Virus record (IMG/VR): IMGVR_UViG_3300042308_001371 | Coordinates: 17,766-81,765 of that record | DNA: 64,000 nt | Direction: 5' to 3' (one strand) | From: a virus | In this document: positions 30,618-61,283 of the stretch, in pieces | Layout of the letters: every line of letters begins with the position of its first letter | Numbering within the stretch: position 1 is the stretch's first letter | Program-made: the position numbers and the translations under genes | The notes under the pieces: model-generated | Seen by the model: only the letters and a program-made list of their open reading frames with translations | What the model was told of the DNA's origin: nothing | Databases searched by the model: none

Positions 30618-30923
30618 TTATTTTATTAAAATAACTCCATTATCAAAACCGCCTCTTTCCAAGCACTTATCTTCTCTTTTTTTAAATACTTCTTCTACAA
30701 TATTTTGCTTAACTACTAAAGCTTTTAAAACTTCTAAAACATCAGCTAACTCTTCTATCAGATTTTCATTACTGGTAGCATTTAATACCTCATTAGCTTC
30801 TTCTACTAATTTATTCTTTAATAATAAAAGCATTTCATCTTCGGAAGCTACTCTAGTAACTAAAGTATCTCCTCTCTCCTTAAATACAAACTCCACAATT
30901 TTATCTCTTACCAACTTTTCCAT
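30618..30923 (-). CDS. MazG-like nucleoside triphosphate pyrophosphohydrolase
   Basis: KLVRDKI, KLVEEA.E, EELAD.LEV, K..ERGGF. Confidence 0.85.
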   Translation of the reverse strand: MEKLVRDKIVEFVFKERGDTLVTRVASEDEMLLLLKNKLVEEANEVLNATSNENLIEELADVLEVLKALVVKQNIVEEVFKKREDKCLERGGFDNGVILIK

Positions 30924-31078
30924 TAAAATAACTCTTTTCCAAGGGATGTTTTTTTTAATTCTATCTCTGCTTCACGAATACTAAGGATCTCTATAGCTTC
31001 TTCTACAGATAAACAATTAGACTCTAGTAAAATCATTAGTATTCGAATATCAGGGATACTAGAAGTAGGAAAGCTCAT
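30923..31078 (-). CDS. Small protein with C-terminal tag TSLGKELF (51 aa, not in the ORF track)
   Basis: MSFPTSSIPDIRILMILLESNCLSVEEAIEILSIREAEIELKKTSLGKELF; start and stop overlap both neighbours. Confidence 0.7.
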   Translation of the reverse strand: MSFPTSSIPDIRILMILLESNCLSVEEAIEILSIREAEIELKKTSLGKELF

Positions 31079-31467
31079 TTCTTATTCTCTCTTCTTGCTA
31101 AAGCCCTATCACCGCTTTCGGATAGACTTTTAGATTTATGACATAGCCAGCATATAGACTGAACATTGTCCTCATCACAGAATAGCCTACTTATGACTTT
31201 ATTCCAATCCTTATCTTTCCCAGAATCCTCTACTGGCACAACTGGATCAATATGGTCAACATCCATTTTACCAGCAATTGCAGAAGGATGCTCAATTTGG
31301 ATATACTCTATAGATCTTTTACCAGTATAGATTATTTGCTCACACAAGGGACACTGGTGTAGCTCTGGACCTATCTTAGTCTTTTTTTTCGCTTTTAATA
31401 TCGGACTCCACTGCTTTGTTAACTTTCTCAACGCTGACATTATTTTTGCTTGGAATCGTTTGTCCAT
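31075..31467 (-). CDS. HNH endonuclease
   Basis: CPLC, DVDHIDPV, NVQSICWLCH. Confidence 0.8.
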   Translation of the reverse strand: MDKRFQAKIMSALRKLTKQWSPILKAKKKTKIGPELHQCPLCEQIIYTGKRSIEYIQIEHPSAIAGKMDVDHIDPVVPVEDSGKDKDWNKVISRLFCDEDNVQSICWLCHKSKSLSESGDRALARRENKK

Positions 31468-31822
31468 CCAGTTTCTCCAGTTTCTTTACTTCAAGTCTTG
31501 GTCTAATTTTTTCTTCGACCTTTAATTCAATCTTCTTCTCACTATGTCTAACAAGTTTATCTTTAATCTCAGTTAGTCCGTAGTCTTGCAGTTGATTGAA
31601 TTGATCAACTTGTGGAAAACTTTTAGAAACGAATGGGCTTCTAAACCAATCACCCACTGTCGCTAAATATAACTGTCCATCATCAGCTTCAATCAATGTA
31701 CCTGAACTATGAGACAGGATAGTTGCTTTCTTAGGAACTACCCAATGCCTAGCTGCAGCATTTAGCGAATCACTATTTACTACTTGATCTAAAGTTACTT
31801 TCATTGTTCTAACTACATTCAT
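31376..31822 (-). CDS. Hypothetical protein
   Basis: 148 aa; GAGG RBS. Confidence 0.55.
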   Translation of the reverse strand: MNVVRTMKVTLDQVVNSDSLNAAARHWVVPKKATILSHSSGTLIEADDGQLYLATVGDWFRSPFVSKSFPQVDQFNQLQDYGLTEIKDKLVRHSEKKIELKVEEKIRPRLEVKKLEKLDGQTIPSKNNVSVEKVNKAVESDIKSEKKD

Positions 31823-31985
31823 CGTTTACCTCTATATAATCTTCGTTATTTGCCAAAATTCTAATATAATGCTCTGTCTCATCAACAGAAAGCTTTCCAC
31901 AACTACAACTTACAAATTGTCCGGGATATGATGAGTAAACTAAATCTGAACATTTTAAACACATGAATTTAGTTTTTTTAAACAT
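31809..31985 (-). CDS. Small zinc-ribbon protein (58 aa, not in the ORF track)
   Basis: MFKKTKFMCLKCSD...FVSCSCGKLSVD. Confidence 0.6.
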   Translation of the reverse strand: MFKKTKFMCLKCSDLVYSSYPGQFVSCSCGKLSVDETEHYIRILANNEDYIEVNDECS

Positions 31986-31987
31986 AT

Positions 31988-32269
31988 CTATCCCTTCTTT
32001 TTAACTGCTCTAAATCCACAAGCAGATTTACATAATTCTAAAAATCCCATGGGTAATTCAGTTATAGAAACTTCGGCTCCACATTTAGGACATTCGTTAC
32101 ACGTATATTTTTTAATCTTTTCAACAGATTTCTCTACTTTAAACACCTTAACATCTTTATTTTTATCTTGCAACAACTTTTTTAGTTTATCTATTTGTTT
32201 TTTTAAATCTTCTATCTCTCTTTCAAGTTCATATTCAATTTCTAAATTAGGCTTTCTTTTTCGTCCCAT
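31988..32269 (-). CDS. Coiled-coil plus zinc-finger hypothetical protein
   Basis: CPKCG...CKSAC; GGAG RBS. Confidence 0.6.
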   Translation of the reverse strand: MGRKRKPNLEIEYELEREIEDLKKQIDKLKKLLQDKNKDVKVFKVEKSVEKIKKYTCNECPKCGAEVSITELPMGFLELCKSACGFRAVKKKG

Positions 32270-32626
32270 ACTACTCTCCTTAGAAAGTAAACTTGATTTA
32301 TTTATACTTCAAATCTGATAGTTCTTTTTCTAAATCTTTTATCCTTTTTTTATATTTAGCTAAAATTCTTTTATTAATAATAGATTGTTTAATAAAAACA
32401 TATGACATAGATATAATAGATAGTACGAGTGAAATTATTAACACTAATCTTCCTTTAATTTCGCTTCTCTTTAACTTCGTACACTACCCCATCAATATAC
32501 ACTATATTTGTTTTAAGGCTAGTTTTAGATACAAATTCCTTAGTTATTACCCATCCGGTAATACCCATCATAATTACAAATGCAAGATACATACCTATCA
32601 GAAAACTATTCGTACATTTAATTAAT

Positions 32627-32887
32627 CTATTCACTAGTTACCTCATCAATAGTTTTTTTCCTAAGTTCATAGTAATCTTGATTAGTTTGCTGCGCAAGCA
32701 TTTTAATAAGATAATTTATAGCTTTTTTTAAATCCTGCTCCCCATTCTTGTGCCTGTATCTAGCAATATACTTAACAACTGCCCCCTGCATATAATCAAA
32801 TCCCATGCCAGTTATAGCATCCCAAACTTCAATAGTTCCATTATTATATCTCGATGGTCTAGCAATTGTTTCTGATTCTTTTGACAT
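32627..32887 (-). CDS. DUF3310-like protein
   Basis: P..Y..G.IE..D.I, G..VKY..R...KNG..DLKKA..Y. Confidence 0.85.
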   Translation of the reverse strand: MSKESETIARPSRYNNGTIEVWDAITGMGFDYMQGAVVKYIARYRHKNGEQDLKKAINYLIKMLAQQTNQDYYELRKKTIDEVTSE

Positions 32888-32898
32888 TAATACACTCC

Positions 32899-33949: not shown

Positions 33950-34735
33950 TTATTTACTCCTATAAGCTTTTAATGCATCCTGTACAACTTCAGTCTTATC
34001 GAACTCAGATAGAACTATAAATAATTCTTCTGTAGCAAGTACGTCCATTTTGTTGTACAGCTCCATTTCTTTCCATGCAGCAACATTACCTTTACCACAC
34101 TCGTCCCACAGCATGAATCCCGGAAACTTACTATGTGCTAACTTCTTAAGCTTACAGAACTTCTTAGACATCCACTCAAGCTTATTGCTAACAAATTTAA
34201 AATGTTTTTTAGCTAATTTTAAAGTATCTATTTTTTTATAATCACTAGGACTTCCTAGTTTATATTCTAAGAACTTAGCATTGAGCTTTTTAATATCAAA
34301 ACTATCAGAATTTTGACCTATGATGATATCAGCCTCATCCATTAACTTCCAAATAGGCTTTAGTAGTTCCTTTTCTTTTGACTTATTGCCCTTAACATCT
34401 TTATAAAGAACCTCATTAGAATCAATCCACTTAGCACTCCAAGAGAAGATGCCGCCTTCATCTACTATCTGATTAAGGGATATATTTTGATCAAATAACC
34501 CCCAAACCTTAGCAGTCATGGGTTTAGTTTCAATATCTAGAATTAATACTTTTCTAGGTGATTTTTCAATAGAAGAGCCATACACTTCGATGCAATGCTT
34601 TATAGAATCCTGAGTTCTTACATTAGCAGGGTATTTGTCATTAAACTTCCTAGCAATATCTTTTCTAGAAAATCCTCTCCTATGAAGATTTAAAACAAAA
34701 TTAATTTCTTTTGTAAGCCAAGATTTCTTAATCAT
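33950..34735 (-). CDS. DnaQ/RNase H-like 3'-5' exonuclease with an N-terminal HTH
   Basis: LDIET, GQNSDSFD, IDTL, SNKLE, YNKMDV. Confidence 0.85.
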   Translation of the reverse strand: MIKKSWLTKEINFVLNLHRRGFSRKDIARKFNDKYPANVRTQDSIKHCIEVYGSSIEKSPRKVLILDIETKPMTAKVWGLFDQNISLNQIVDEGGIFSWSAKWIDSNEVLYKDVKGNKSKEKELLKPIWKLMDEADIIIGQNSDSFDIKKLNAKFLEYKLGSPSDYKKIDTLKLAKKHFKFVSNKLEWMSKKFCKLKKLAHSKFPGFMLWDECGKGNVAAWKEMELYNKMDVLATEELFIVLSEFDKTEVVQDALKAYRSK

Positions 34736-35031
34736 TCTAGTTCCTTTAATAATCCAGTTTTCTTTTTAATTCTAGACTCGTGGTAATAAGCTTCTATCAT
34801 TCTAACACCAGTTGCCTTAACTGGTAAACAAAAATATGTATAAGGCCTAGCATTACTGGTTATCATAAGAATTTCAAATTCTATATCACTAATCATAACG
34901 TATTCATTTATCTTAAATTTAGGCTTTTTAACCTTCCTATATATCCAATAGTAAAATTGCACGAACTTGTATCCATGCATGAGTATCATATTTAGCGTAA
35001 GTAGTATAGATAGTATAGTAATAGTTACCAT
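34732..35031 (-). CDS. N-terminal TM plus SH3-like domain; C-terminal tag TGLLKELE
   Basis: Hydrophobic N-terminus; PKFKINEYV; tail motif. Confidence 0.65.
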   Translation of the reverse strand: MVTITILSILLTLNMILMHGYKFVQFYYWIYRKVKKPKFKINEYVMISDIEFEILMITSNARPYTYFCLPVKATGVRMIEAYYHESRIKKKTGLLKELE

Positions 35032-36876: not shown

Positions 36877-37110
36877 TTATAAAAGCTCTTTTTCTAAACT
36901 TGATATTTTTCTTATAAATTCATCCTCATAGCAATAGCACTCATTCACTGGCATCTCGTTAGCTTCCAGATCCAACCATTTAATACTAATAATGCCATCC
37001 CTATAGTCTAATATTAAATAATGCGCATCAGCACTATCGTCAAACCATATATCCCCAACTTCAAAATTCTTCTTTTCCCCATTTTTCATAAATTTCTTTT
37101 TTAACTCCAC
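36877..37110 (-). CDS. Small SH3-like protein; C-terminal tag SSLEKELL
   Basis: FEVGDIW start motif; tail motif. Confidence 0.7.
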   Translation of the reverse strand: MELKKKFMKNGEKKNFEVGDIWFDDSADAHYLILDYRDGIISIKWLDLEANEMPVNECYCYEDEFIRKISSLEKELL

Positions 37111-37255
37111 ACTTAGTACAATCTTCTACAGTAGATATTATAAGTACTGTTTTTTTCCAATTATGGCTACAATACTTCTGCGACCAGTCTGAGTGTTTTT
37201 CTGGAACAGGAGGAGGAGGTGGGTAGTCATCGTCATCATTATCCATGTACCACAT
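37061..37255 (-). CDS. Small zinc-binding hypothetical protein
   Basis: C.H.W...C.KCG; poly-Pro. Confidence 0.55.
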   Translation of the reverse strand: MWYMDNDDDDYPPPPPVPEKHSDWSQKYCSHNWKKTVLIISTVEDCTKCGVKKEIYEKWGKEEF

Positions 37256-37704
37256 TAAAACTCCAGTGCTATACCTAAACCGATTCTTTTAGTAGTGTCC
37301 AATGTTCCAACAATGGATAAATTACCAAGCAGAGGAGATACTGCTACTACTCCAAAATTAGTCTTTTCTGAAAATTTGCCAAGATCTTTTAATGCTAATA
37401 CTCCAATTGTAATATTAGATTTTTTAAATTTAGTCTCCTCTGAATAAGATACACTTGATTGTGAATCAGAAGAACTGTCTTCTTCTATTGTAGTATCTAC
37501 AGTTGAGCTTCCATCAGCATTCGTAGTTTCCTTAGTAGTAGTTACTTTTTTCTTTTTTTCTTTCTTAACTTCAACTTGTACATATTTAATAACTTCTTTA
37601 ACTTCTTGTTTTGGCTGTATCACAAATCTACCAACTAAAAGTGAAATTAGTCCCACTATAAGTAAATTTTTATACTGACTAATATTTTTCATTAAAAATC
37701 CCAA
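37255..37704 (-). CDS. N-terminal TM, charged linker and C-terminal beta-strands ending GLGIALEF (spanin candidate)
   Basis: Hydrophobic LLIVGLISLLVG; K/T/S-rich linker; terminal aromatic beta-signal-like strand. Confidence 0.55.
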   Translation of the reverse strand: MGFLMKNISQYKNLLIVGLISLLVGRFVIQPKQEVKEVIKYVQVEVKKEKKKKVTTTKETTNADGSSTVDTTIEEDSSSDSQSSVSYSEETKFKKSNITIGVLALKDLGKFSEKTNFGVVAVSPLLGNLSIVGTLDTTKRIGLGIALEF

Positions 37705-37719: not shown

Positions 37720-37914
37720 TTATTCGAGTTCTTTTCCTAGAGAGGTTCTTCGCAGTAACTCCTGACCTAATTCTTCATCCGTAAATTCGCTTAATATAGA
37801 GTAGTCTTTTAGATAACCCCAGTACCCATCTATCCCTACTTTATACGTAGTTAGCTTAGGGTACAATTCCTCTAATTCTATCTTAGTCTTTTTTGTTGTC
37901 ATCTTTGTTACCAT
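37720..37914 (-). CDS. Small protein; C-terminal tag TSLGKELE
   Basis: 64 aa; tail motif. Confidence 0.6.
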   Translation of the reverse strand: MVTKMTTKKTKIELEELYPKLTTYKVGIDGYWGYLKDYSILSEFTDEELGQELLRRTSLGKELE

Positions 37915-38182
37915 TTGAAAAAGTTAAGTCTAGCAGCATACATAAAATGACGGTTAATCCCATGGCTGTTAGTAAACTTGCGCCAATTCCCAAATGACCA
38001 GCTTTATACACTGCACCCATAGTTTGACCTACAATAAATCCTAATCCAAGTTTAAAAAAATAAATCATATATCTCCTTATAATAATCTTAGCATAAGAAT
38101 TCTTTAATACGCTCAAGCAGGGATAGCTTACGTACATCCTCAATACAGTACCACATGGTATAATAGAAATACATGCCAGCAT
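37883..38182 (-). CDS. Small 2-TM membrane protein (likely start 38068)
   Basis: AAGGAG RBS before MIYFFKLG. Confidence 0.5.
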   Translation of the reverse strand: MLACISIIPCGTVLRMYVSYPCLSVLKNSYAKIIIRRYMIYFFKLGLGFIVGQTMGAVYKAGHLGIGASLLTAMGLTVILCMLLDLTFSNGNKDDNKKD

Positions 38183-38390
38183 TATTGAATTTCCAACACA
38201 CTTTTACCTGATCAGGCTCAACTATAATAACTTTACCAGTTCCAAGTATAGCTAAAGACTCACATAGCATTTGCTCAAAAGAAGAAGCATTCACTCCTCC
38301 ACGAAGTTGCCAACCATCAAATGCGTCATCAATGTTATGATAAAAATTAAATCCTCTACTAGTCATCTTAACAAGTGCGCCTTTTTTCAT
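38088..38390 (-). CDS. SH3-like hypothetical protein; degenerate tail KLSLLERIKEFLC
   Basis: MKKGALV start. Confidence 0.55.
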   Translation of the reverse strand: MKKGALVKMTSRGFNFYHNIDDAFDGWQLRGGVNASSFEQMLCESLAILGTGKVIIVEPDQVKVCWKFNNAGMYFYYTMWYCIEDVRKLSLLERIKEFLC

Positions 38391-39152: not shown

Positions 39153-39581
39153 TAGTGACCTTCCATTTTATGTCTAAGTTTTTATCATACACAAGAACAT
39201 ACCTGTGCTTAACACTCCTACCCCTCCACTCTCCCTCTATTCCTTTAACCTTACCTCTACTATGCTTAATAAATGTTCCATCTGACTGCTTTATGAAGAA
39301 ATCCTTCTTAGCCTCAGTTAGTCCATAGTACTTGAAGTTACAAGCTTTGTAAACAGTGCCAGAGTGGAATGTAGAATCTGCGTATGATAAAATAGCTCTT
39401 ACAGATTTTTCCTTCCTTAAAAGTCTAATAGATCGAGACACAAACCAAGAAGCTAAATTATGTTCTTGTTAAAGCCACTTTTAAATCCCTTAGAGATGTC
39501 TTTTAAATAATGGAACTTTAATAGAATGTCAGCAGCTTGTTGCTTGGATACTAAGCCTAACTTAAAGGATTCCTTACTCAT
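39139..39581 (-). pseudogene. Mom-like DNA-modification GNAT with an internal deletion and frameshift
   Basis: Frame 1 (39453..39581) reads ILLKFHYLKDISKGFKSGFN and then stops. A second frame resumes EHNLASWFVSRSI...ILSYAD..H.GTVYKACNF. The central ELxRL segment expected in this family is absent. Confidence 0.7.
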
Positions 39582-41860
39582 TAATGCCCCTCTCGAAGAT
39601 TATACGCGAATTGTGGAATTGCTACAAGAGGTACTGAAATTTTATTAGTCTGCTCCATACATCTCTGAACAATCTCAGCCACTTCGTCCTTCTGACTTTC
39701 ATTTGCTGATATTATAGCCTGATCATGTACGCTAAGGCTAACCCAAGCATCTAAACCCCTCAGCAAGAATTCTCTACTCATGGCAATACACGCTCGGCTA
39801 ATGATAGAAGTAGCAGCTGCTTGAATTGGAAAGTTCAAAGCATTATTTAGTAAGTTGTTGTACTTACTTCGCATAATCTTAACCTCATCCATTGAAATTC
39901 GCTCTTTATAAGCAATTCTCCCCATTGCCTTGTAGTCTAACAAGCTATCCTTATACTTCTTATACATATCTCTTACTTCTGGCAAGTGTCTAACCCTGCC
40001 ATATTTAGAGGTAACTTTTCCAGTTGTTTTAGCTTCATGCAAATAACCATCCATTGCTTGTTTCAATAGAGGAAATGCTTTAAAATAGTTGTCAATCAAA
40101 TCCTGAGCCTCTTCTTTTGAAATACCTAATAACTGGGAAATCTTTCCAGCCTTTGCACCGTATCTAATTCCTAAAGAATAGCCTTTAGCGTCTTGTCTTA
40201 ATTTTGGATGAGTATTTTTTAAAAAGTTAGGTGCTTTCTTATCAGCAGAAAATCCTTCCAAACCATGTGCCATTATAGCCACCTTAGAGTAGAAGTCTTC
40301 CCCATTAATGAAAATATCCCTAAGGGGCTGATCTCCTGCATCATCAGCAAACACAGATGGTTCCAAACTAGAGTAATCGTCGTCGATAAAAACATAACCA
40401 GACTTTGGAACTATTAACTCTCTTAAAACATTAGTATAATAAATAATCCTTGCATCATCTTCTCCATCTTCTAATGGTCTACTTAATTGCTGCAAATCTC
40501 CACCGTATCTTCCAGAAGTAGTAGCGTGTTGCTTGAAAGTAGGATAGTAAATTCCATCCTCTTGCATTTCCATGAATCTGTCAAAATAGCTGCTTTTGAT
40601 CTTATTCATCTTGTTGAATACTCGCAGCTCTAAAGCCCAAGCAAATCCATAAGTTTCTGCCAAGTGTTCAACGAAGTCTTCATTGAACTGACCCTTCCCA
40701 CCCTTTGTTTTTGATAGCGGAGCAATCCCCATTCTCTCAAACACGATCTTGCCGAGCTGATCTTTTGATGCAAGGTTAATGGGATACTGCTGATCTTGGA
40801 GCAATAGCCCCATCTGCGCACCCCTCCAGTCGAAATTGGGAAGTATAGTTCCATTTGCAAGAAAATCGTAGTGCTCTGGGTGTGTGTCTTTTAAAACCTC
40901 AATGCTCTTTTTTGTAAGTTGGAACTTACCACTTTTTAGTACTGGTAGGAATCTTCCCAAACCACAAAGCTCACAAAAGTATTGCTTCAGCTTGCCACCT
41001 GATAATGGGTATTCTTCGTTCAGCAAATCGTCCACAAACTCTTTTGCCTCAGGAGTCGCCATAATAGCCTCAACTACGGCTTTCTCTGTCCTCGCTAATT
41101 CTAGCTTGATTTCCCCAAGGTACTTCTCAAGCTTCGGCATATCAAGGTAAACTCCGCGGTGCTCCATTTTTATTGTCACTAGCTTATAAAGCGGCATAAC
41201 TTCGTCAACATAGAATAAGTCAGATAAGCCTTGCAATTTCATTTCTGAGTGAAAGTAGTGAAATAGTCGCAAAGTTATGTCAGTGTCAGCAATTGCGTAC
41301 TTAGCCAAGATTGGCAAGTCGCCTTTGAACATTTGCTTATTCTCTCTTGTCCAACTCCCACCATTGGCTTTGACATTAAGCTCAAGCTCAATCTGCTCCT
41401 GATTGGCTGCGTCCTGATTGTCAAGACCTATTTCAGCAGCATAAATGAGCGCATTCTCTTTCAGAGCAAACGGACCCTCCTCCGCTAGTGTGTGCTTCAT
41501 AAGCTGAGTGTCAGCGTAGAGAGCTGAGATTAAATTGACCTTAAAGAAGTTAGCAGTGACTCGCACATCAAAACTGGCATTGTGCATAATCAGACGTTTT
41601 TGCGACAGCAATTCTAAGAATTTAGTAGCAACAGACATTGCCCACTTCTGTTCATCAAGTTGCTGAGTTACTTTGTTCCAAACGAATGTGGGCAAGTACC
41701 AACCAGTACCCACAATGCACGAGAATGAGAATCCTATGATTTTTACCTTGCGAACATTCAATCCAGTGGTTTCAGTGTCATAAGCCACTACGTCAGCATT
41801 TTCTAGCTCACTCAACGCAGTCTGAGAATTCATGAGATTTATAATTTGGTAGGATTTCAT
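39581..41860 (-). CDS. polA: Family A DNA polymerase with 3'-5' exonuclease
   Basis: DTETTG, HNASFD, SGRY, DYSSLE, RQDAKGYSLGIRYG, NFPIQ, VHDQ. Confidence 0.92.
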   Translation of the reverse strand: MKSYQIINLMNSQTALSELENADVVAYDTETTGLNVRKVKIIGFSFSCIVGTGWYLPTFVWNKVTQQLDEQKWAMSVATKFLELLSQKRLIMHNASFDVRVTANFFKVNLISALYADTQLMKHTLAEEGPFALKENALIYAAEIGLDNQDAANQEQIELELNVKANGGSWTRENKQMFKGDLPILAKYAIADTDITLRLFHYFHSEMKLQGLSDLFYVDEVMPLYKLVTIKMEHRGVYLDMPKLEKYLGEIKLELARTEKAVVEAIMATPEAKEFVDDLLNEEYPLSGGKLKQYFCELCGLGRFLPVLKSGKFQLTKKSIEVLKDTHPEHYDFLANGTILPNFDWRGAQMGLLLQDQQYPINLASKDQLGKIVFERMGIAPLSKTKGGKGQFNEDFVEHLAETYGFAWALELRVFNKMNKIKSSYFDRFMEMQEDGIYYPTFKQHATTSGRYGGDLQQLSRPLEDGEDDARIIYYTNVLRELIVPKSGYVFIDDDYSSLEPSVFADDAGDQPLRDIFINGEDFYSKVAIMAHGLEGFSADKKAPNFLKNTHPKLRQDAKGYSLGIRYGAKAGKISQLLGISKEEAQDLIDNYFKAFPLLKQAMDGYLHEAKTTGKVTSKYGRVRHLPEVRDMYKKYKDSLLDYKAMGRIAYKERISMDEVKIMRSKYNNLLNNALNFPIQAAATSIISRACIAMSREFLLRGLDAWVSLSVHDQAIISANESQKDEVAEIVQRCMEQTNKISVPLVAIPQFAYNLREGH

Positions 41861-41868: not shown

Positions 41869-42066
41869 TTAGAGTAGTTCTTTTAATAAATTAGAGGCAG
41901 GGGAATACTTCTTCTTAAACTGAGCAGAGTTTACAGTCCACATGCCCTTAGATCCATCCTTTATATTACAAAACTCATAGGTAACATCGTCGTAGATTAT
42001 AATGAGTATTATAGCAGAATACGTGAAGTCCTTACGGATGTAACACTTTCCCTCTTCTAATTTCAT
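41869..42066 (-). CDS. Small SH3-like protein; tag SNLLKELL
   Basis: LEEGKCY start motif; tail motif. Confidence 0.7.
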   Translation of the reverse strand: MKLEEGKCYIRKDFTYSAIILIIIYDDVTYEFCNIKDGSKGMWTVNSAQFKKKYSPASNLLKELL

Positions 42067-42281
42067 AATAACTCCATCATTAGCGAGCTATGGTATTTCC
42101 CGTCTACCCAATATTTTATACCATCTATGTTTATTAAGTATACAAAACGTAATCCAAACGGATCTATTGCTTCAATTGGGTGAATCGTTCCGATTATATT
42201 AGCAGCTTTAGTTGGGCATAGGGTTAGTATGTTAGTAACTACTATTATATCATTTATATTTAAATTCTTTATACTTCCCAT
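42063..42281 (-). CDS. Small SH3-like protein; tag SSLMMELL
   Basis: LNINDIIV; tail motif. Confidence 0.65.
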   Translation of the reverse strand: MGSIKNLNINDIIVVTNILTLCPTKAANIIGTIHPIEAIDPFGLRFVYLINIDGIKYWVDGKYHSSLMMELL

Positions 42282-43567: not shown

Positions 43568-43752
43568 AATAATTGTATTTCCAATGATGATAGTTTTACT
43601 AATCCCATTTCAAAATTAGACTTATAATACCACGAAGTTTCTCTAAAGATAGATGAATTATATTTTATTACAACAAAAACTAATTGATCAGTAACTTCAG
43701 TTATTTCAAATATAGCCCAATAATCATTTCTGTATATATCCCCTTTTTTCAC
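43564..43752 (-). CDS. Small SH3-like protein; tag SSLEIQLL
   Basis: MKKGDIY; tail motif. Confidence 0.7.
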   Translation of the reverse strand: MKKGDIYRNDYWAIFEITEVTDQLVFVVIKYNSSIFRETSWYYKSNFEMGLVKLSSLEIQLL

Positions 43753-44756
43753 AGATCTCCGCTATCTCCGCTAAACTTCTCTACAATAGTAACTACTTTA
43801 CCACTAGGACTTACTACTTCTTTAATTAAGTCATAAGTGAAACTCTTATGCTTCTCTTCTGCAGACTTCATTGCTAGAAGTTCATTATAGTATAACTTAA
43901 AGGTAGAGTACTCATTAATAGACATTTTCTTAAACCCTCTAGTCTCCACATCATAAGCCAGTAGCTTATTTTGACCACGCTTAATCTTATCCTCTTTGTG
44001 AGCTTCTCTAATCTTGCAATACCCCCATCCCATTACGCTTATCTTAGCCTCTTCTTCAAGTCTTAAAACTGGGCGATGAATCTGCATAATATCAGAGCAA
44101 ATGTACTTAAACTGACTACAGCCCAATACTGCATCTGCATCAAGAGGAACCTCTCCCTTCTGACCAGCACCTTTATTTACTTGAGCCATAGGGACTCCAA
44201 AAGCATTTAATTCTACAGCCATTTCTTTTAATGTAATCATAATAGAATTAAGAGTAGACGGATCGTTCTCGCCTAGACAATGAATATGGTCAATTGCAAA
44301 AGCTGCAACATCTCCAATGACTTCACGATACTTAACAAGTTCTTTCTTAATCCATCCCATGCTAACCTCACGAGATTTTCCAGTCTCATCATATCTGGAG
44401 ATTACGTATAATCTTTCAGATACCTCTGGACAATCCTCAGTAAGCTTAAACCATCGTTGAGAGATCTTTTCGTCGGTCATTTCAAGTGAAACGTATACGG
44501 CACAAGAATTTGGATTGTTCTTCAGAATCTCTTTAAAAAAATATAATACTACCTCAGACTTACCTACTCCAGAATCTCCAATTACTCCAAGTAACTCTTG
44601 TCTACTCCATTGATTTATCAAGCAATCAAATTCTTTAGGTCCGTTAATAAAAAGCTTTGTATTTAATCCACCGGAAACCTTACCAGATCTTTTTAGATCT
44701 GCTAAACTCCTTACTCCCATTTGTTGCTTTCTTTTATCATTAAAACTAGTCATCAT
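43749..44756 (-). CDS. DnaB-like (SF4) replicative helicase
   Basis: GDSGVGKS, SLEM, IDHI, AQVN. Confidence 0.85.
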   Translation of the reverse strand: MMTSFNDKRKQQMGVRSLADLKRSGKVSGGLNTKLFINGPKEFDCLINQWSRQELLGVIGDSGVGKSEVVLYFFKEILKNNPNSCAVYVSLEMTDEKISQRWFKLTEDCPEVSERLYVISRYDETGKSREVSMGWIKKELVKYREVIGDVAAFAIDHIHCLGENDPSTLNSIMITLKEMAVELNAFGVPMAQVNKGAGQKGEVPLDADAVLGCSQFKYICSDIMQIHRPVLRLEEEAKISVMGWGYCKIREAHKEDKIKRGQNKLLAYDVETRGFKKMSINEYSTFKLYYNELLAMKSAEEKHKSFTYDLIKEVVSPSGKVVTIVEKFSGDSGDL

Positions 44757-46961: not shown

Positions 46962-46990
46962 AGTATAAACCTTACTAGTATATTTGTCAA
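46962..46990 (-). promoter_or_regulatory. sigma70 promoter
   Basis: TTGACA-17-TATACT. Confidence 0.8.
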
Positions 46991-47014
46991 TAATTAGATC
47001 ACCTTTACTATATC

Positions 47015-47302
47015 TCACATTAACTCCTTTATAAGAGAAGATTCTGGGACAATCTCATCTAAAAAAAATGGGAATATATTTAATGCATTATACTTATCCC
47101 CATACCTATCATCCTGATTAACAAATACATTAATTAATCTAACGTGATTATTATGACCGTATACAATTTCTGCTACTACATATATTTTACCTATAAAAGC
47201 AGGAATATCACTTTCTTTTATACAGAGAACTCTATCACCAACTTTATAGTTCATATTAGCTCCAACAATAATGCAGGTGCTCTCTCTATGGTTTCTAGCC
47301 AA
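47015..47302 (-). CDS. Small SH3-like protein; tag SSLIKELM (likely start 47254)
   Basis: MNYKVGDRV; tail motif. Confidence 0.7.
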   Translation of the reverse strand: MARNHRESTCIIVGANMNYKVGDRVLCIKESDIPAFIGKIYVVAEIVYGHNNHVRLINVFVNQDDRYGDKYNALNIFPFFLDEIVPESSLIKELM

Positions 47303-47550
47303 TCAAACTCACCATTATCATATGTCACAGCTGGAATATATGCGCTTAAATTAATTGTAGCTACTCTTAGTGGATTTCCATTTTCTCCAGTTACAATAGA
47401 TCCCCCTTCCTTATACATTACATAATCTCCAACCCTAACTTCGTTTTTTGAGTCCATCCATTCTCCCATGCCAACATAAGTTAAAGAACTCGCAAGGCTT
47501 TCCATAAAAATGACACTCTTTAGGCGAATTCTTTTTTGAAAAACTAGCAC
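47251..47550 (-). CDS. Small SH3-like protein; tag PALLLELI (likely start 47457)
   Basis: VRVGDYV; tail motif. Confidence 0.65.
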   Translation of the reverse strand: MLVFQKRIRLKSVIFMESLASSLTYVGMGEWMDSKNEVRVGDYVMYKEGGSIVTGENGNPLRVATINLSAYIPAVTYDNGEFDWLETIERAPALLLELI

Positions 47551-48427
47551 AAGCTATATTATTAAGTTTCTGCTCTACAATGTCAAATGTTTTTTGCTTA
47601 TGCTCATCAGAAATTGTATCCCTTATTATTTGAGTTCTTACCTTTGGATCTTTAACCCTAATCTTTTTTTGTAATACAACGTAAGAAGCTTCGGCACAAT
47701 TTTCAGCCTCGCAGTAAATAGCAAGTTGTACACTATTTGCTACAGAATCCTCTTTATAAGGCTCTGAGGATGTTTTATTATCGCAGATATGTCTTACAGT
47801 AGGATCATCTTTAAAACTTGCAATAAAGTCAATCTTGCCTCTAAGCTTATCTCCGGATTCATTTTCAAGGGATATTTCCTTTTGAATTTCAAATACTTCT
47901 TCTATATGAGGCAGTACATCTTTCTCATATGCTTCTATTAATAGTCTACCTTTACGATATAAACTAATCCAACAAAGATTATTTAACGCTATCTTAGATC
48001 CCTTTGGCAATTCCCCATCTGATTTTATTTTTTTCTTGCAGTAGACTATAAACTCTTCAAAGTCCACTATAGATGGATATCTAGTGTTGAGCATGACAAT
48101 ATCTTGAGCTTGTAGTATATTCAAATCACAATCAGAAAAAAAATACTCACATAGAGGATTCCTTTCCAGTAATTGACCATTTTGCTCTATCATCCACTTA
48201 TCGAATACAGAGTAAGCATTTTCATTTAAAAGTAAATCTAATTCTACATCAGTTAGATATTGCTTTTTCTTTAAAAGAAGTAACTCCATAGCAGCATCAA
48301 TAGCTGAACCAAAAAATAAAGGACTGGGTATTTTTTCAGAGGCTAACTTTTCTCTATACCTAAGTCTATACTTTTCAGAGCATTGCTCAAAACAGTCTAA
48401 AGCAGAAAATGAAACATTAATACTCAA
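47435..48427 (-). CDS. PD-(D/E)XK (RecB/Cas4-like) exonuclease
   Basis: SFSAL..F..C...Y, GKIDF, DNKT, QL..Y, terminal Cys cluster. Confidence 0.85.
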   Translation of the reverse strand: MSINVSFSALDCFEQCSEKYRLRYREKLASEKIPSPLFFGSAIDAAMELLLLKKKQYLTDVELDLLLNENAYSVFDKWMIEQNGQLLERNPLCEYFFSDCDLNILQAQDIVMLNTRYPSIVDFEEFIVYCKKKIKSDGELPKGSKIALNNLCWISLYRKGRLLIEAYEKDVLPHIEEVFEIQKEISLENESGDKLRGKIDFIASFKDDPTVRHICDNKTSSEPYKEDSVANSVQLAIYCEAENCAEASYVVLQKKIRVKDPKVRTQIIRDTISDEHKQKTFDIVEQKLNNIACASFSKKNSPKECHFYGKPCEFFNLCWHGRMDGLKKRS

Positions 48428-48597
48428 AGTAACTCCAATAGTAGACTAGAAGGCTTTACAAATCTACTGGCATGATGATGGAAGAATCTTCCGTCTATGT
48501 AAATACTAAAGCCCTCTTGGTCAATAATTACTTGATATATGCCAATTGGACATCTGTCTAAGTATGGATCTATGAGTAGCATTGAAATTAAGTTCAT
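48424..48597 (-). CDS. Small protein; tag SSLLLELL (57 aa, not in the ORF track)
   Basis: MNLISMLLIDPYLDRCPIGIYQVIIDQEGFSIYIDGRFFHHHASRFVKPSSLLLELL; overlaps both neighbours by 4 nt. Confidence 0.7.
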   Translation of the reverse strand: MNLISMLLIDPYLDRCPIGIYQVIIDQEGFSIYIDGRFFHHHASRFVKPSSLLLELL

Positions 48598-51250: not shown

Positions 51251-51449
51251 TTAGTTTATCCAATAAAATATTTAATAGAACTATTATAAATCCCTTTGCT
51301 ATAAAAAATAATACTACTTTTATAAGAATTAGTATAAACAATAGTCTAAAAATAGTATCTTGTATATTTTCTAGCTTCATTATTCTTTTTCCAGATAGAT
51401 TACCTTTCCAAATTCTGCAGGGGCTGGAGATTTTCTTACTCCTACCCAT
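51231..51449 (-). CDS. Small membrane protein (likely start 51380)
   Basis: Long hydrophobic segment. Confidence 0.45.
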   Translation of the reverse strand: MGRSKKISSPCRIWKGNLSGKRIMKLENIQDTIFRLLFILILIKVVLFFIAKGFIIVLLNILLDKLNEYKYG

Positions 51450-52573
51450 AGAAAAGGCTTATTAGGATTTTCTGGAGTATCTGCAGTGTCAAAATCACCA
51501 CAGTATAAAATGCCGTCAACCTTTAATTCTACAGCTTTTTTAATAGCCGGATTGTATGCGGTCCCGCCCCTACCTTTAAAATTGGGAGTCTTACCTGCTT
51601 CAAATTCATATACATTTTGTACAATACAATCTGCTTCGATAACTGTAATTTTAACTCCACATGCTCCAATAGATTGCATTTCTGCCCAAAACATTGACAA
51701 TTCCTCATCGCTTACCGATCCAGAAGTATCTACACATAGACCCAAATGAAGTTCTGGCTTCTTTTTACTCCCCGGCTGCAAAATTCCATATCTTCTATTT
51801 CTTTTTTTTCTAGTTGGAATTCTACTACTCTTTAAAGTATTAACATAAAATTGTCTTAATTGCTGTTTCCAATTAACTTGACTCTTGTTCATATCACTTA
51901 CTAAGCCAACTAAATCACTAGGCAGATTACCAATGCCTCCAATTGATTTAACTGAATCGTTAACCGCTTGCTTGGCTACTTCCTTCTGCATCTCTGCATT
52001 TCCTTCAGACTTATCCCAAACAGAATGGTCATCGATAGTATCCCCCAAGCCGTCACCCTCTGGTAGTATATCCGAGTTTTCTTCTGCAAATTGATTTATT
52101 CTATTGTAATAATACTCAGCCATTTGACCTTCAATCATGGGAGTAAAAGCCCTTTTTGCATTGTCTTTGGCATTAGCCTTCTCTATCATTGCCTTCATCA
52201 TTTCATTAATGGACTTAATAGTAACTCCACCTATTTTTTCAACTGTAGCAACTAAATCATGTGTATTAATAGTTGCATCTGTTGCAATATTAAATCTTTT
52301 ATGTAGTTCTGCATTAACTACTCCAATCTGTTTTGCGCGAATAATATGCTCTTGTAGAATGTGAGCGCACTCATGTTTTAATACCTTAACAACATCGATT
52401 AGATCTAAACTTTCAATCCAATCCTCGTTATAAATTAGATTTATTTTATCTGTAATAAAAACTCCGGCAGTAGGAATCTTATCAGTCTTATTAATTTTCA
52501 TCTTAGAGATCAAATGCCCATAAAATGGTTCAGAAAAAATGAGAGCTGTTATTGCTTGTTGGAACTTATTCAT
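51380..52573 (-). CDS. Metallopeptidase-vWA protein (DUF2201-like)
   Basis: HECAH, N.A.D..IN, VDTSGSV, GRGGT. Confidence 0.85.
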   Translation of the reverse strand: MNKFQQAITALIFSEPFYGHLISKMKINKTDKIPTAGVFITDKINLIYNEDWIESLDLIDVVKVLKHECAHILQEHIIRAKQIGVVNAELHKRFNIATDATINTHDLVATVEKIGGVTIKSINEMMKAMIEKANAKDNAKRAFTPMIEGQMAEYYYNRINQFAEENSDILPEGDGLGDTIDDHSVWDKSEGNAEMQKEVAKQAVNDSVKSIGGIGNLPSDLVGLVSDMNKSQVNWKQQLRQFYVNTLKSSRIPTRKKRNRRYGILQPGSKKKPELHLGLCVDTSGSVSDEELSMFWAEMQSIGACGVKITVIEADCIVQNVYEFEAGKTPNFKGRGGTAYNPAIKKAVELKVDGILYCGDFDTADTPENPNKPFLWVGVRKSPAPAEFGKVIYLEKE

Positions 52574-52666: not shown

Positions 52667-53854
52667 TTAAAAAGGTATATCAGAGTTTTCAAATGCTTTA
52701 GCTTTAGCTTTAGCTTCCCTCTCTTCTTTAGCCGTTTTATATGCATCTTTTGCAAGCCTAGCTTCTCTTGTCTTTTCTACTAATTGTTTATTCTCTAGTA
52801 CATAAGCCTTCATGTTAACATCTGTCGAAAATTGAGCAACCTCTCTTAAGGGCAGCAAAAAAGCATACAAATTTTCTACAGGGCAGTCTAAAAGAAATGC
52901 CACTAGATTTTTAGCATTATTGTCAGTTAGTGTAGTTGCTTTAAGTCTAATTACTAGCTCCTCAGAAACATTAGAGCAAACTGTAGCGATGATATCGGCT
53001 CTAGGTGCTTCAATATCTTCTAGAGTAACTGGGTTTTTAAAATTCTTAATAAAACTAGTTCTACTCTTTTCATAATTATCTAGAATATCTTTTGCATCAA
53101 CAATTTTTACTTGGTTTTCCTTCCACGAACTATAGGCAATCATACTAGTAGTTCCTACAATGCCCATACCTGCTTCTCTAAAAAGATTCTCTGGCATACT
53201 GGTTAGTTCCAATTTTTGAAGTCTATCCCATGATCTTCGTGAAGGTTTAACAAAATCTAAGGTAACAGCTTTAAGATCAGTTTCTTCTAGAAGTTTTGTC
53301 TGTTGACGTAAGAAATCACTTACTGGACTATTAGTATATCGACCAGTCATATATTCATGAAATTCTTCATGAGTAGGATCTAGATTAATATGAACAAAAC
53401 GATCTGCAAAAGCCTTATCTGCAAAGTCAAGAACAGAATAGTCATCGGTGGCCGGATTCATTGCCATGATAATGGCAGAATCTTTCGGTAACGTATAATC
53501 ATGTAAGGTTCCTTCTAGAGCCAATTGAAAGATAGCTTGGAGTAGTTCTTTTGATGCTCTGTTAAGCTCATCAAAGAAAAGAATTGACTTAGGATTTTTA
53601 GGTAACTTTTCAGGATGGACAAAGCTAACTGATAAAGCTTTACCAGAACTATCCCTATTAAATTCTGGAAGACCTAGCAAGTCTCCATTGTCGGACATTT
53701 GACCAAGAAAGAATGGGTGAAATGTATAACCATTTTCCTTAGCGTACTGAGCTACTACTGAAGACTTCCCAATCCCATGCTTTCCGATAATATTAGGCAC
53801 AAGCCCAGACTCAATAATGAATGGAAGTGATTGTTTAAGTTGTGTGATATTCAT
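52667..53854 (-). CDS. MoxR-like AAA+ ATPase
   Basis: GKHGIGKS, GDLLGLP, FFDELNRA, AMNP, D.AF.DRF, PS.RSW; adjacent to the vWA gene. Confidence 0.85.
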   Translation of the reverse strand: MNITQLKQSLPFIIESGLVPNIIGKHGIGKSSVVAQYAKENGYTFHPFFLGQMSDNGDLLGLPEFNRDSSGKALSVSFVHPEKLPKNPKSILFFDELNRASKELLQAIFQLALEGTLHDYTLPKDSAIIMAMNPATDDYSVLDFADKAFADRFVHINLDPTHEEFHEYMTGRYTNSPVSDFLRQQTKLLEETDLKAVTLDFVKPSRRSWDRLQKLELTSMPENLFREAGMGIVGTTSMIAYSSWKENQVKIVDAKDILDNYEKSRTSFIKNFKNPVTLEDIEAPRADIIATVCSNVSEELVIRLKATTLTDNNAKNLVAFLLDCPVENLYAFLLPLREVAQFSTDVNMKAYVLENKQLVEKTREARLAKDAYKTAKEEREAKAKAKAFENSDIPF

Positions 53855-53897: not shown

Positions 53898-54290
53898 TTA
53901 TTTTACATTTTGTGTCAATTTATTTTTATTCTTACTTCTAATTACTTCACCAATACAGCATTCTTTACATGCCGCCCTCACCCCTCCCTTTGATGTTTTA
54001 TGGGGTGAAAAGGAAATAAACGGTTTATTTTTACGACATTTAGTACATACCTTTTCTCTAAAATTTACTATTTTATAATCTTTAACTATGCGCCTAGTAT
54101 CTTTTTTTTGCTTTAAACACAATCTAATAAATTCATCCCCCACCTTTATCCTTCTTTCATCTGCACTTACTAAATCTAATATCTGCACTTCTAGATTATT
54201 CTTATCTTCAATCGGAGTAGACTTAAAAACTTTATTAAAAGTTTTAACATCTTGTTTAGGCATATTCTCAAAAATATCTATAATACTCAT
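53898..54290 (-). CDS. Hypothetical protein with a CxxC..CxxC zinc finger
   Basis: CTKCRK.K....F......G....CKEC. Confidence 0.55.
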   Translation of the reverse strand: MSIIDIFENMPKQDVKTFNKVFKSTPIEDKNNLEVQILDLVSADERRIKVGDEFIRLCLKQKKDTRRIVKDYKIVNFREKVCTKCRKNKPFISFSPHKTSKGGVRAACKECCIGEVIRSKNKNKLTQNVK

Positions 54291-54607
54291 TGTAACTCCT
54301 TCAAGGTTAGTATTTTATTCTTACCATATTTTCTCTGAGTGATATACCCTAATTTTTCCAAATTGTTGGCACCGCTTCTGATAGTTCTAAATGATAAGCA
54401 AGTGTTATTTAACAAAGTAGTGAGCGAATGAATTTGTTTAGTATCCCTGACCGCTATAAAGATCATAAATTCAGATAAGGTAAGTTTTTTATAATAATCT
54501 GGAAAACTTAAATTAGTCTCACTTCCAGAAATATCTTTTAATTCTCTTTTCTTTTTTAAGTAATATCTTTTATTTCTTCTCTGCTTGCCTGTTTGTTTTG
54601 TTGTCAT
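54287..54607 (-). CDS. Winged-helix DNA-binding protein
   Basis: LS..TI......LE.LGYI. Confidence 0.6.
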   Translation of the reverse strand: MTTKQTGKQRRNKRYYLKKKRELKDISGSETNLSFPDYYKKLTLSEFMIFIAVRDTKQIHSLTTLLNNTCLSFRTIRSGANNLEKLGYITQRKYGKNKILTLKELQ

Positions 54608-54799: not shown

Positions 54800-55036
54800 T
54801 CACATAAGCTCCATTTCTAAAGAAGTAAGTTTTTGATCTAAAATCTCGGGAAATTTCATAAAATCCCACCTCTGTTCATAAGGTGGTTCATTTAATAGTG
54901 TATATAAAGCGATATTATAACCAACATAGTGGATTTTCATCACATTACTCGGATTTAATCCATCATGCTCCCAAATTTTATAAAATTCCCCTATCTTTGG
55001 TTTTTGAGTATCCGCTTTTTTTAAATTCCTTTTCAA
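54800..55036 (-). CDS. Small SH3-like protein; tag TSLEMELM
   Basis: PKIGEFY; tail motif; AGGAG RBS. Confidence 0.7.
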   Translation of the reverse strand: MKRNLKKADTQKPKIGEFYKIWEHDGLNPSNVMKIHYVGYNIALYTLLNEPPYEQRWDFMKFPEILDQKLTSLEMELM

Positions 55037-55265: not shown

Positions 55266-55514
55266 CTATTCTCCTAAAATTATTCTTTTAACAACGTCAT
55301 CTGTTAAGTCTACAGTAATTAAAGCCTGTTTAAGAGTTTTACTTGTAATGTCTAAATTGGTGCCATGTTCTACAACTTGGAATGATTCTTTATTCCTAAG
55401 CTTACTAACTAAATAGTTTAGCGTTACATAACTCTTTGTTGTTTTACTGTAAAGCTTACGGTTTTTAAATTTCTTAATTGTTTCCATTGTTTTCTCCTTT
55501 GTATTTTTCAACAT
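55266..55514 (-). CDS. PhaR-type (PHB accumulation regulator N-terminal) DNA-binding domain protein (likely start 55487)
   Basis: IKKFKNRKLY......YVTL......  F.V....T..DIT..TL.Q. Confidence 0.75.
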   Translation of the reverse strand: MLKNTKEKTMETIKKFKNRKLYSKTTKSYVTLNYLVSKLRNKESFQVVEHGTNLDITSKTLKQALITVDLTDDVVKRIILGE

Positions 55515-57537: not shown

Positions 57538-57855
57538 TTAGTTTAATGCATTTTCCAAGCTAGACTGAACTAGTAGCGTTTTATTTAAATCACTATAGGG
57601 AGTCCATTTTTCACTTCTAAAGCCATCCTCTAAAGCCACCTCAACAAAGTCTAGCCTTACTTTTGCCGGTGTATTATAAACCGTTTTCATATTAGTTTCA
57701 ATCATTCCCCGAGCAAGCTCTAAAATCTCATCCTCATTAAATTTTCCGTCATTGTAAGGGATATATCCCGCACTTAGGGTATGATACTCAACTTTTCTGC
57801 ATCTTTTTTTAATACCAGCTACTACAATTGAAATTTTAAAAAGCTTACCTTGCAT
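57538..57855 (-). CDS. Hypothetical protein with a near-tag end, SSLENALN
   Basis: AAGGGG RBS; upstream promoter TTGCAA-17-TATAAT near 57887-57915. Confidence 0.6.
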   Translation of the reverse strand: MQGKLFKISIVVAGIKKRCRKVEYHTLSAGYIPYNDGKFNEDEILELARGMIETNMKTVYNTPAKVRLDFVEVALEDGFRSEKWTPYSDLNKTLLVQSSLENALN

Positions 57856-58052: not shown

Positions 58053-58334
58053 TTATGATAAGTAATGAAGCAAGGCTTTACTGCCTAAAACCTCTTTGTT
58101 ATTATATCTAAGGAAAATAAGAGTATTCATGTTAATGGTTCTATAAGCCCCCTTCTCAACGTCAAAAACCACAATATAGTTATATGACTCGGGGGAATAT
58201 TTCAATTCTCCACCTTTCAAATGCTTTTTAACTCCAAAACGCGCAGTCATTTCTCTAGTGGTCCCATCCTTTTTTAGGAAGCATGCTCTAAAAAAATTAC
58301 CTTTCACTTCATTTCTAAATTCTTGGATATCCAT
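58053..58334 (-). CDS. WYL-like/SH3 beta-barrel phage protein
   Basis: F.KKDGT.REM.A..GV, V.D..K..YR.IN. Confidence 0.7.
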   Translation of the reverse strand: MDIQEFRNEVKGNFFRACFLKKDGTTREMTARFGVKKHLKGGELKYSPESYNYIVVFDVEKGAYRTINMNTLIFLRYNNKEVLGSKALLHYLS

Positions 58335-59942: not shown

Positions 59943-59972
59943 TGTATCCCCTTTGGTTGAAAAGCTTGATTC

Positions 59973-60001
59973 ATCTTATCAAAAAAGAAATAATGCGTCA
60001 A
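59973..60001 (-). promoter_or_regulatory. sigma70 promoter
   Basis: TTGACG-17-TAAGAT; shares 22 bp with the promoter at 61668-61696. Confidence 0.7.
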
Positions 60002-60021
60002 TAAAAAAATGCCGATTATTT

Positions 60022-60056
60022 AAAAAACTAAGCGGGCATAAAGCCCGCCCTTTTTT
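60022..60056. terminator. Hairpin terminator, possibly bidirectional
   Basis: GCGGGC-ATAAA-GCCCGC flanked by A and T runs. Confidence 0.6.
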
Positions 60057-60786
60057 ATGCGATAAGCTTCAAAGCTTCGTTATAGATACTAGTATTTAAA
60101 AGGATATTAGCGTCAACGCCTTTTATCGCTCTTACTTTACTAGTCTTATTCTTATCCTCATCCTGTACATAAAAGCCCGTTCTCATCAAATTTTCTTGAA
60201 TGATATTAAATTGGCTAAATAAATCTTCTCTTTTATCTTCCCACCGCTTCGCTTCAAAAAGGGGGATAAGTTTATCAGAATATTTATCCCCCATTCTCAA
60301 TTTTAGGCATGAATCTTGCAAGGCTTTAATTTCGTCACTAGTCAAAATTTTATTGCTCATTGCATTAATTCCATCGATTGCCACAGTCCTATAATCCATC
60401 ATCTCCTCAATTGAATCGTCAAGCTTCAAAAGCCCGTTTTGGGTATGCCGTACTTTAATTTTAGGGATTAGATCACTCCCCACTATCAAACCATTGGAAC
60501 AAACCATTCGAAAAAAGCCTAGTCGGAAAGTCAACGCGCTTGATCCTTCGTGAGAATTAATAGCCAATAGTTGAAGTTTTCCTTGACTATTTGAATAGCC
60601 AACATCAAAGCGCAAAACATGTTTTTGGAAGCCTAGGCGTTTTTCCTTATCCTTTCTAATTTTAGACTCCACAACATCGGACAATTTAAATCCCTTATTT
60701 TCAAGATTTTTCACTAGACTTTCACTTGAGATAAACCCGAATTTATTAGAGCCAATGTGAGACGTTTGAGTTAAGCAAATTGACAT
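60055..60786 (-). CDS. DUF932-family protein
   Basis: GFQKH..RF, NSHEGSS......G.FR.VCSNGL, FN.IQEN. Confidence 0.85.
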   Translation of the reverse strand: MSICLTQTSHIGSNKFGFISSESLVKNLENKGFKLSDVVESKIRKDKEKRLGFQKHVLRFDVGYSNSQGKLQLLAINSHEGSSALTFRLGFFRMVCSNGLIVGSDLIPKIKVRHTQNGLLKLDDSIEEMMDYRTVAIDGINAMSNKILTSDEIKALQDSCLKLRMGDKYSDKLIPLFEAKRWEDKREDLFSQFNIIQENLMRTGFYVQDEDKNKTSKVRAIKGVDANILLNTSIYNEALKLIA

Positions 60787-60818
60787 ATTATTTCCTTTTT
60801 GTTAAATTCCCTAAGATT

Positions 60819-60847
60819 ATTATATTCCATGCGTCAAATTAAGTCAA
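60819..60847 (-). promoter_or_regulatory. sigma70 promoter with an internal TTGACGCA
   Basis: TTGACT-17-TATAAT. Confidence 0.8.
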
Positions 60848-60851
60848 GTTT

Positions 60852-61283
60852 TTAAGTTAATTCTATCTCAAGTGAAGTCACGCCCTCGGCTTTTTGACCA
60901 CAAAAATCTTTTAAACGCCCATTATAAAGCACTTTTTTAGTGTAACTATCAATGACTTTTAACTTTACAGAATTCACATCTTGACTTAAAATATAAGTAA
61001 AATCTTCCCCACTGCCCTCTGTATTAGGTGCCATAATATAAACATTTCCTATTTTCTTTTGCTTTAACTCCCCTATTAAATAAGCAGCCAAACATCCCAT
61101 GCCGTTAAATTTTGAAGGCGTAGCGCATGAATCATTATAACCATTCAAAATAATAACATTTCCATTGTTTAAAATTTTCTTAACATCCTCGCCTAGTCCA
61201 GTAGGATATCCGTCATACTGCCTATAAATTGTGGCAATTGTCTTTCTTCCATCCTTAACGTGAATTAATGCCCTAGTCCCCAT
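60852..61283 (-). CDS. Conserved phage protein (MGTR...YRQYDGYP family) carrying tag TSLEIELT
   Basis: MGTRA, IYRQYDGYP.G.G, NGMGCLAA.LI. Confidence 0.75.
   Translation of the reverse strand: MGTRALIHVKDGRKTIATIYRQYDGYPTGLGEDVKKILNNGNVIILNGYNDSCATPSKFNGMGCLAAYLIGELKQKKIGNVYIMAPNTEGSGEDFTYILSQDVNSVKLKVIDSYTKKVLYNGRLKDFCGQKAEGVTSLEIELT

Follow-up and report, generated by a model that had tools for sequence, protein, structure and literature searches.

Why should roughly one in four early proteins of a phage, almost none of which resemble each other, end in the same eight residues? The question is raised by a 64,000-nucleotide stretch of viral DNA, hereafter the window, which comprises bases 17766-81765 of IMG/VR record IMGVR_UViG_3300042308_001371, an 81,765-bp genome (G000) rated 97% complete. 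The source is an uncultured lake phage, and members of its clade recur in lake-water metagenomes, many of them as 80-86 kb contigs; a search of sequencing runs found this DNA in lake-water metagenomes only, with no RNA holders listed, and a nucleotide search of a phage collection gave no match to it. The late genes are on the plus strand and the approximately 100 early genes on the minus strand. A C-terminal tail with the consensus [ST]-x-L-x-x-[EA]-L-[LFIM] is carried by 24 of the minus-strand genes in the 81.8-kb genome, as against none of the 42 plus-strand genes. Sixteen of these carriers and one near miss fall within the window, and 8 further carriers lie outside it at the left end of the genome. 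The original prediction, made on the window, had listed 15 tails and the near miss, all of which are present on the minus strand at their coordinates, and had correctly described the late arm as free of the tail.

The occurrence of the tail was assessed with a strict pattern, [ST]xLxx[EQ]Lx at the stop, and a looser one, [STP]xLxxxLx-stop. The enrichment at C-termini is far beyond chance, with 22 strict matches observed against 0.011 expected from composition, and the strict pattern is found in only 2 of 24,886 internal windows. The looser pattern is matched once in about 2,800 genes from 78 unrelated phage loci, once in 1,375 genes from 77 metagenome loci, and by none of the 90 open reading frames called in the first 50 kb of Flavobacterium phage immuto, the nearest cultured phage by polymerase. 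Queries with PolA, MoxR, vWA and carrier proteins retrieved tail-bearing relatives (G001, G005, G006, L114, L196-L199 and L209). Across nine phages with tails, the seven-residue core occurs 109 times: in 95 cases it is followed by exactly one residue, in one by four and in one by eleven, the remaining 12 occurrences being internal and at approximately the level of chance. Of the 97 cores lying within 20 residues of a C-terminus, 95 therefore sit one residue before the stop, which bears out the identical register proposed from the window. Such a strict terminal register fits recognition of a free C-terminus.

The residues themselves suggest a defined shape. Position 1 is S or T, suited to a helix N-cap, and position 2 is S, P, E or D, all typical of a first helical turn. 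Leu occupies positions 3 and 7 in each of the 72 tails compared, which come from three genomes; position 6 is E or A according to the genome, and position 8 is in most cases L, F, I or M, with several carriers ending in E, G or K. On these preferences the tail is a predicted two-turn, N-capped amphipathic helix, and the short amphipathic helix first proposed fits the pattern. The codons show the variability claimed for them, Ser being encoded by both TCN and AGY and Leu by five codons; as they vary freely, selection on the tail is at the protein level. The constancy of the two Leu residues contrasts with the bodies of the carriers, which change fast.

All-against-all BLAST of the carriers finds almost no similarity outside the tail, in agreement with the dissimilar gene bodies first described, and the bodies are frequently not detectable by BLAST even between relatives. 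Most carriers open with a KxGDxY-type SH3 strand. An AlphaFold2 model of the 36877 carrier (Table 1), with 36 paralogs as the alignment, is a five-stranded small barrel (residues 14-17, 22-30, 33-39, 50-54 and 60-61) followed by a helix at residues 64-69, with a predicted local distance difference test (pLDDT) score of 85, and of about 89 in the last block; Foldseek against the PDB returns weak, generic matches to KOW, SH3 and Tudor-like chains at an E value of about 0.1. The bodies of most carriers are thus modelled as hypervariable SH3-like mini-barrels, which probably bind different targets. Pfam and PHROGs give nothing significant for the carriers, and the ESM Atlas gives unnamed viral clusters only, all below 0.9. 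A profile search of 1.8 billion representatives returned only 31 proteins. Several of these are long, contain multiple repeats and align with no more than the N-terminal half of the profile; among the short proteins aligned over its full length, those inspected are all unnamed proteins from metagenomes, examples of their tails being SSLMEELV, TPLEMELL and SSLHKALL.

The tail also occurs on other folds, so the description of it as portable stands. The 143-residue 60852 carrier is modelled as an alpha/beta protein (pLDDT 94), for which Foldseek finds no match in the PDB. Its family has more than 400 members; among the 120 best, 38 end [TS]xLExEL[STND], almost all of these being among the closest, and the others, mostly more distant, have different ends, many of them ...VEGLDKEDAS. 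One tail-less ortholog, L036, comes from a phage locus without any tails. The distribution suggests that in this family the tail is an add-on gained by one subclade. Other bodies are the membrane-anchored 99-residue protein at 34732, helical-looking mini-proteins and, in L209, a nucleotidyltransferase that terminates in SPLCKALL. In the non-SH3 bodies the tail is preceded by polar or basic residues (KKT, RRT, EGVT).

Comparison between genomes reveals that position 6 is set per genome. It is E in 21 and Q in 2 of 23 tails in this phage. In G001, 20 of the 52 early genes are carriers, with tails of the type [TS][PD]LxxAL[LF..] and A at position 6 in all 20; in G005, which is 100% complete, 29 of 105 early genes have tails of the type [ST][EPD]LxxALL, 27 of them with A. 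The remaining relatives have several carriers each, L196, L198, L199 and L114 (mainly E) and G006 being E-type, and L197 and L209 A-type. Position 6 tracks the genome type in four orthologous carrier families. Orthologs of the 34732 carrier in A-type phages end in SALTKALF and SDLLKSLL, and the near miss at 57538 has an identical tail in L114 and an L197 ortholog ending SSLEKALM; the L197 ortholog of the 54800 carrier (9087-9332) reads SSLEKAL and then four extra residues, CIGY, and its tail is the only one found to have lost the terminal position. The synonymous sites of the tail are scrambled among carriers, so gene conversion is not behind the uniformity at position 6, which is a shared constraint. 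At least one switch between E and A has occurred; the MoxR and vWA trees are without resolution, and gene-by-gene identities among the relatives are mosaic.

Taken together, the strict register, the invariant Leu residues, the unrelated folds and the uniform position 6 are best accounted for if the tail is recognised in trans by a single common site, whether on a protein of the host or of the phage, a reading that is credible but short of probable. The portable helix would then be a common handle on early proteins, with one binding site recognising both the helix and the free C-terminus, and docking would gather a large, fast-evolving set of early proteins at one place. A single reader is presumed here, and recruitment, inhibition or turnover would be the outcome of docking.

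Several observations weigh against such recognition. No reader protein was found. Carriers of the SH3 type have almost no linker between the last strand and the helix, which AlphaFold2 places confidently, so that the helix may be packed against the barrel of its own protein. The E/A split may represent only one or two historical switches, given that most genes of G001 and G005 are close. In addition, in a sister lineage (L208, IMGVR_UViG_3300026473_000477), SH3-like small proteins (for example 2674-2910, 4109-4363 and 5616-5855) end in KLW[QR]LDKL[FL]EN.. plus 2-4 variable residues. This related helix is not terminal, and a helix near the C-terminus may thus be an old structural feature of the barrel family that predates the exact tag.

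A screen for phage proteins in which residues sort with the tail type was noisy, with few A-type genomes, and gave two weak leads, a WYL_2 protein and a PhaR-like protein. Both are unusually divergent in L197 relative to the E-type phages, and six orthogroups neighbouring their genes lack such divergence in L197. Separately, an 839-residue protein that is unrelated by BLAST (L025 3238-5757) stands in G005 in place of the family A DNA polymerase of the window, and no homolog of that polymerase or of the ribonucleotide reductase was detectable in G005.

Table 1. Tail carriers and other features of the window discussed in the text (window positions; aa, amino acids)
Positions	Strand	Feature	C-terminus	Remarks
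30923-31078	-	carrier	TSLGKELF	51 aa; helical-looking body
34732-35031	-	carrier	TGLLKELE	99 aa; hydrophobic N-terminus, also termed membrane-anchored
36877-37110	-	carrier	SSLEKELL	likely start 37089 (70 aa); SH3-like barrel; no overlapping downstream start
37720-37914	-	carrier	TSLGKELE	64 aa; no overlapping downstream start
41869-42066	-	carrier	SNLLKELL	65 aa; SH3-like start MKLEEGKCY; no overlapping downstream start
42063-42281	-	carrier	SSLMMELL	72 aa
42517-42744	-	carrier	SSLERQLL	75 aa
43564-43752	-	carrier	SSLEIQLL	62 aa; SH3-like start
46851-47018	-	carrier	SSLIKELT	55 aa; absent from the original list
47015-47254	-	carrier	SSLIKELM	79 aa from ATG at 47254; SH3-like (MNYKVGDRV)
47251-47457	-	carrier	PALLLELI	about 68 aa; SH3-like (VRVGDYV)
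48424-48597	-	carrier	SSLLLELL	57 aa
51008-51250	-	carrier	SGLESELL	80 aa; immediately downstream of the vWA-peptidase gene
54800-55036	-	carrier	TSLEMELM	78 aa
56486-56683	-	carrier	STLEKELI	65 aa; SH3-like start
60852-61283	-	carrier	TSLEIELT	143 aa; alpha/beta fold (model)
57538-57855	-	near miss	SSLENALN	105 aa; position 6 = A, position 8 = N
54287-54607	-	tail-like ending	...ILTLKELQ	out of register
38088-38390	-	tail-like ending	...LSLLERIKEFLC	out of register
27768-28694	-	ClpX-like AAA+		AAA_2 + ClpB_D2-small by Pfam; candidate hub, rejected
52667-53854	-	MoxR-type AAA+ (AAA_5)	DIPF	candidate hub, not supported
51380-52573	-	DUF2201 protein		HExxH and metal ion-dependent adhesion site (MIDAS) DxSxS motifs; candidate hub, not supported
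39581-41860		family A DNA polymerase
58053-58334	-	WYL_2 protein		Sm-like SH3
55266-55514	-	PhaR-like protein		DNA-binding
43749-44756	-	DnaB-like helicase	FSGDSGDL
45717-46268	-	Erf-like annealing protein	IPSGDL
27261-27665	-	protein with outer-membrane-signal-like tip	...GLxLEF or ...MNLTF
29778-30569	-	protein with outer-membrane-signal-like tip	...GLxLEF or ...MNLTF	N-terminal signal or anchor sequence
37255-37704	-	protein with outer-membrane-signal-like tip	...GLxLEF or ...MNLTF	N-terminal signal or anchor sequence

Among the alternatives to recognition in trans, the one that survives best gives the tail a structural or self-associating role: as the capping helix in an enlarged family of SH3-like small proteins, it would pack on its own barrel or pair carriers with each other, and would need no separate reader; this is possible, but rather unlikely. 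The modelled barrel with its confidently placed helix, the SH3-type start common to most carriers, the hydrophobic, strand-like residues just ahead of the tail in these proteins and the non-terminal helix of the L208 lineage are all as would be expected, and tail-to-tail pairing would account for a joint change of position 6 on all carriers. A purely intramolecular role, however, leaves unexplained both the strict terminal register and the genome-wide uniformity of position 6, and Leu is invariant although Ile, Val or Met would do. The same tail is moreover found on unrelated folds, where it follows polar or basic residues, and was added in one subclade of the 60852 family.

A second alternative is that a host AAA+ protease (ClpXP, ClpAP, Lon or FtsH) reads the non-polar C-terminus as a degron and clears early proteins on schedule. 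Signals for bacterial proteases do include non-polar C-termini and ssrA-like tails, and the strict register to a free C-terminus, the mostly non-polar last residues (L, F, I, M) and the restriction of carriers to the early arm are consistent with this. It is nevertheless improbable: the tail bears no resemblance to LAA-type tags, the 60852 family retains it although the final residue there is polar (S, T, N or D), the carriers ending in E, G or K do not conform, and the ClpX-like gene of the phage is dispensable for the system, being absent from G005.

The latter observation also bears on the original proposal that the tail is linked to the AAA+ machines of the phage itself, which is not upheld. 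Co-occurrence with the ClpX-like gene breaks down in the complete and tail-rich G005, where 29 carriers are found and no homolog of the gene is detected, and it is rejected as the hub; Pfam finds no Zn-finger N-domain in its product. The pair formed by MoxR and the vWA protein is present in all eight tail-bearing phages for which the region is known, but is shared by 36 further phage loci that have no tail, among them L208 with its variant helix. A complex prediction for the vWA-peptidase (56-row alignment) with the 36877 carrier (36-row alignment) scored 0.00, which gives no verdict and is not evidence. The DUF2201 protein has invariant H67, E68 and H71 (HExxH) and D282, S284 and S286 (DxSxS) among 56 homologs, and is likely to be a fusion of an active metallopeptidase with a vWA domain, adjoining MoxR. 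The C-terminus of the MoxR protein resembles the bacterial SSB tip; relatives have DIPF or EIPF, L198 has DTTF, and the MoxR of G005 is without a tip of this type. No member of the sliding-clamp family was found among the phage early proteins searched with Pfam or PHROGs, and the tail does not fit the clamp motif QLxLF / QLxLxL, position 6 being Q in only 2 of the 23 tails of this phage.

An elaboration of recognition in trans is that the carriers form a library of adaptors, in which each of the hypervariable SH3-like binders would hold a different host target, for instance a defence protein, and the constant helix would deliver it to one machine. That machine could be the conserved pair formed by MoxR and the HExxH-peptidase/vWA protein, or a host protease, which would remodel or destroy the target. 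Bacterial viruses would then have an equivalent of F-box or proteolysis-targeting chimera (PROTAC)-like targeting, an idea that is regarded as quite doubtful.

The least tenable explanation, to which hardly any probability is attached, attributes the tail to translational coupling, with codons that would be kept as the Shine-Dalgarno (SD) site of an overlapping next gene. The phage does use such sites, SD-like sequences being present upstream of about 70% of its genes against a background of 13%; 15 of the 23 carriers in this genome and 14 in G001 overlap the next start (through ATGA, GTGA or TAATG in G000), and the SD is frequently embedded in tail codons 5-6, which in overlapping carriers read GGAG-like or AAGG-like. 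However, the full motif, including the genome-specific position 6, is kept by 8 carriers without such an overlap in this phage (36877, 37720, 41869, 60852 and four at the left end of the genome) and by 6 in G001, while 20 and 16 overlapping genes without the tail, respectively, have unrelated C-termini, and the SD does not cover positions 1, 3, 7 and 8, at which the codons vary. This refutes overlap with a ribosome-binding site as the sole cause, as had been argued at the outset, with one correction: the stop of 47015, cited as a carrier lacking an overlap, overlaps the GTG start of the 46851 carrier (GTGA), and it is therefore excluded.

Other C-termini in the window may also be shared. The last four residues are SGDL in both the DnaB-like helicase and the Erf-like annealing protein, possibly a second shared C-terminal tip; that of the helicase is kept in relatives. 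Three further proteins, together with their orthologs, end in ...GLxLEF or ...MNLTF, and one of them is a ClpP-family protease with a signal peptide. As these ends resemble the C-terminal signal of outer-membrane beta-barrels, they suggest that the host may be Gram-negative. The proportion of genes with an SD-like site argues against a Bacteroidota host, despite the polymerase of a Flavobacterium phage being the closest from a cultured phage. A related 10.7-kb contig (L245) is binned in a 'Candidatus Melainabacteria' metagenome-assembled genome, but is not reliable as a hint of the host.

Among phages of an abundant lake clade, one tail is found on about a quarter of the early proteome; it is retained as the bodies diverge beyond recognition, and its changes are coordinated between genes. 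Were a single reader to exist, its discovery would at once place dozens of 'hypothetical' early proteins on a common pathway and make available a simple, transferable handle of eight residues with which to study or redirect phage early proteins. Should its role be structural instead, the tail would mark out a new and large family of small beta-barrel proteins in phages.

Literature searches did not find a comparable tail, and to our knowledge shared C-terminal docking tails in phages have so far been seen only on a handful of replication and transcription proteins. Small beta-barrels of the SH3, KOW, Tudor and chromo-like types with a C-terminal helix have the same five strands and short helix, but here conservation of the helix far exceeds that of the barrel, and other folds carry it as well. 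Free C-terminal peptides are also known from bacterial SSB, with its tip DDDIPF, and from T7, where gp2.5 and gp4 have acidic, F-ended tails; they are read in pockets of several partners or of a single polymerase, and their register to the carboxylate matters. These are acidic runs ending in Phe, unlike the helical, Leu-based tail described here, and they involve one or two tailed proteins and many readers rather than many carriers. The ssrA tag and the ClpX-binding tail of SspB are peptides at the C-terminus by which proteins are directed to an AAA+ machine, but have no sequence likeness to the present tail, and the ClpX-like protein of the phage, besides being absent from G005, is without the Zn-finger N-domain that binds the SspB tail. 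Poxvirus ankyrin/PRANC (F-box-like) proteins form large, fast-evolving paralog families in which variable binding bodies are combined with a constant element at the C-terminus, through which they dock on a hub of the host. The likeness to the carriers is one of design only, as these are proteins of eukaryotic viruses in which the element is a folded domain of approximately 30-40 residues, rather than a helix of eight. The nearest precedent lies in T4, where the interchangeable hydrophobic-acidic C-termini of gp43, gp33 and gp55 all bind the gp45 clamp (PMC2988020); these are similar in that a short motif at the extreme C-terminus is shared by unrelated phage proteins and, in T4, read by one hub. 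The present motif is unlike the T4/RB69 tails and the bacterial QL[SD]LF, and the long, flexible linker of gp55 contrasts with the near absence of a linker in the carriers. The scale also differs: there are three such proteins in T4, as against 24-30 carriers per genome here, or about a quarter of the early genes.

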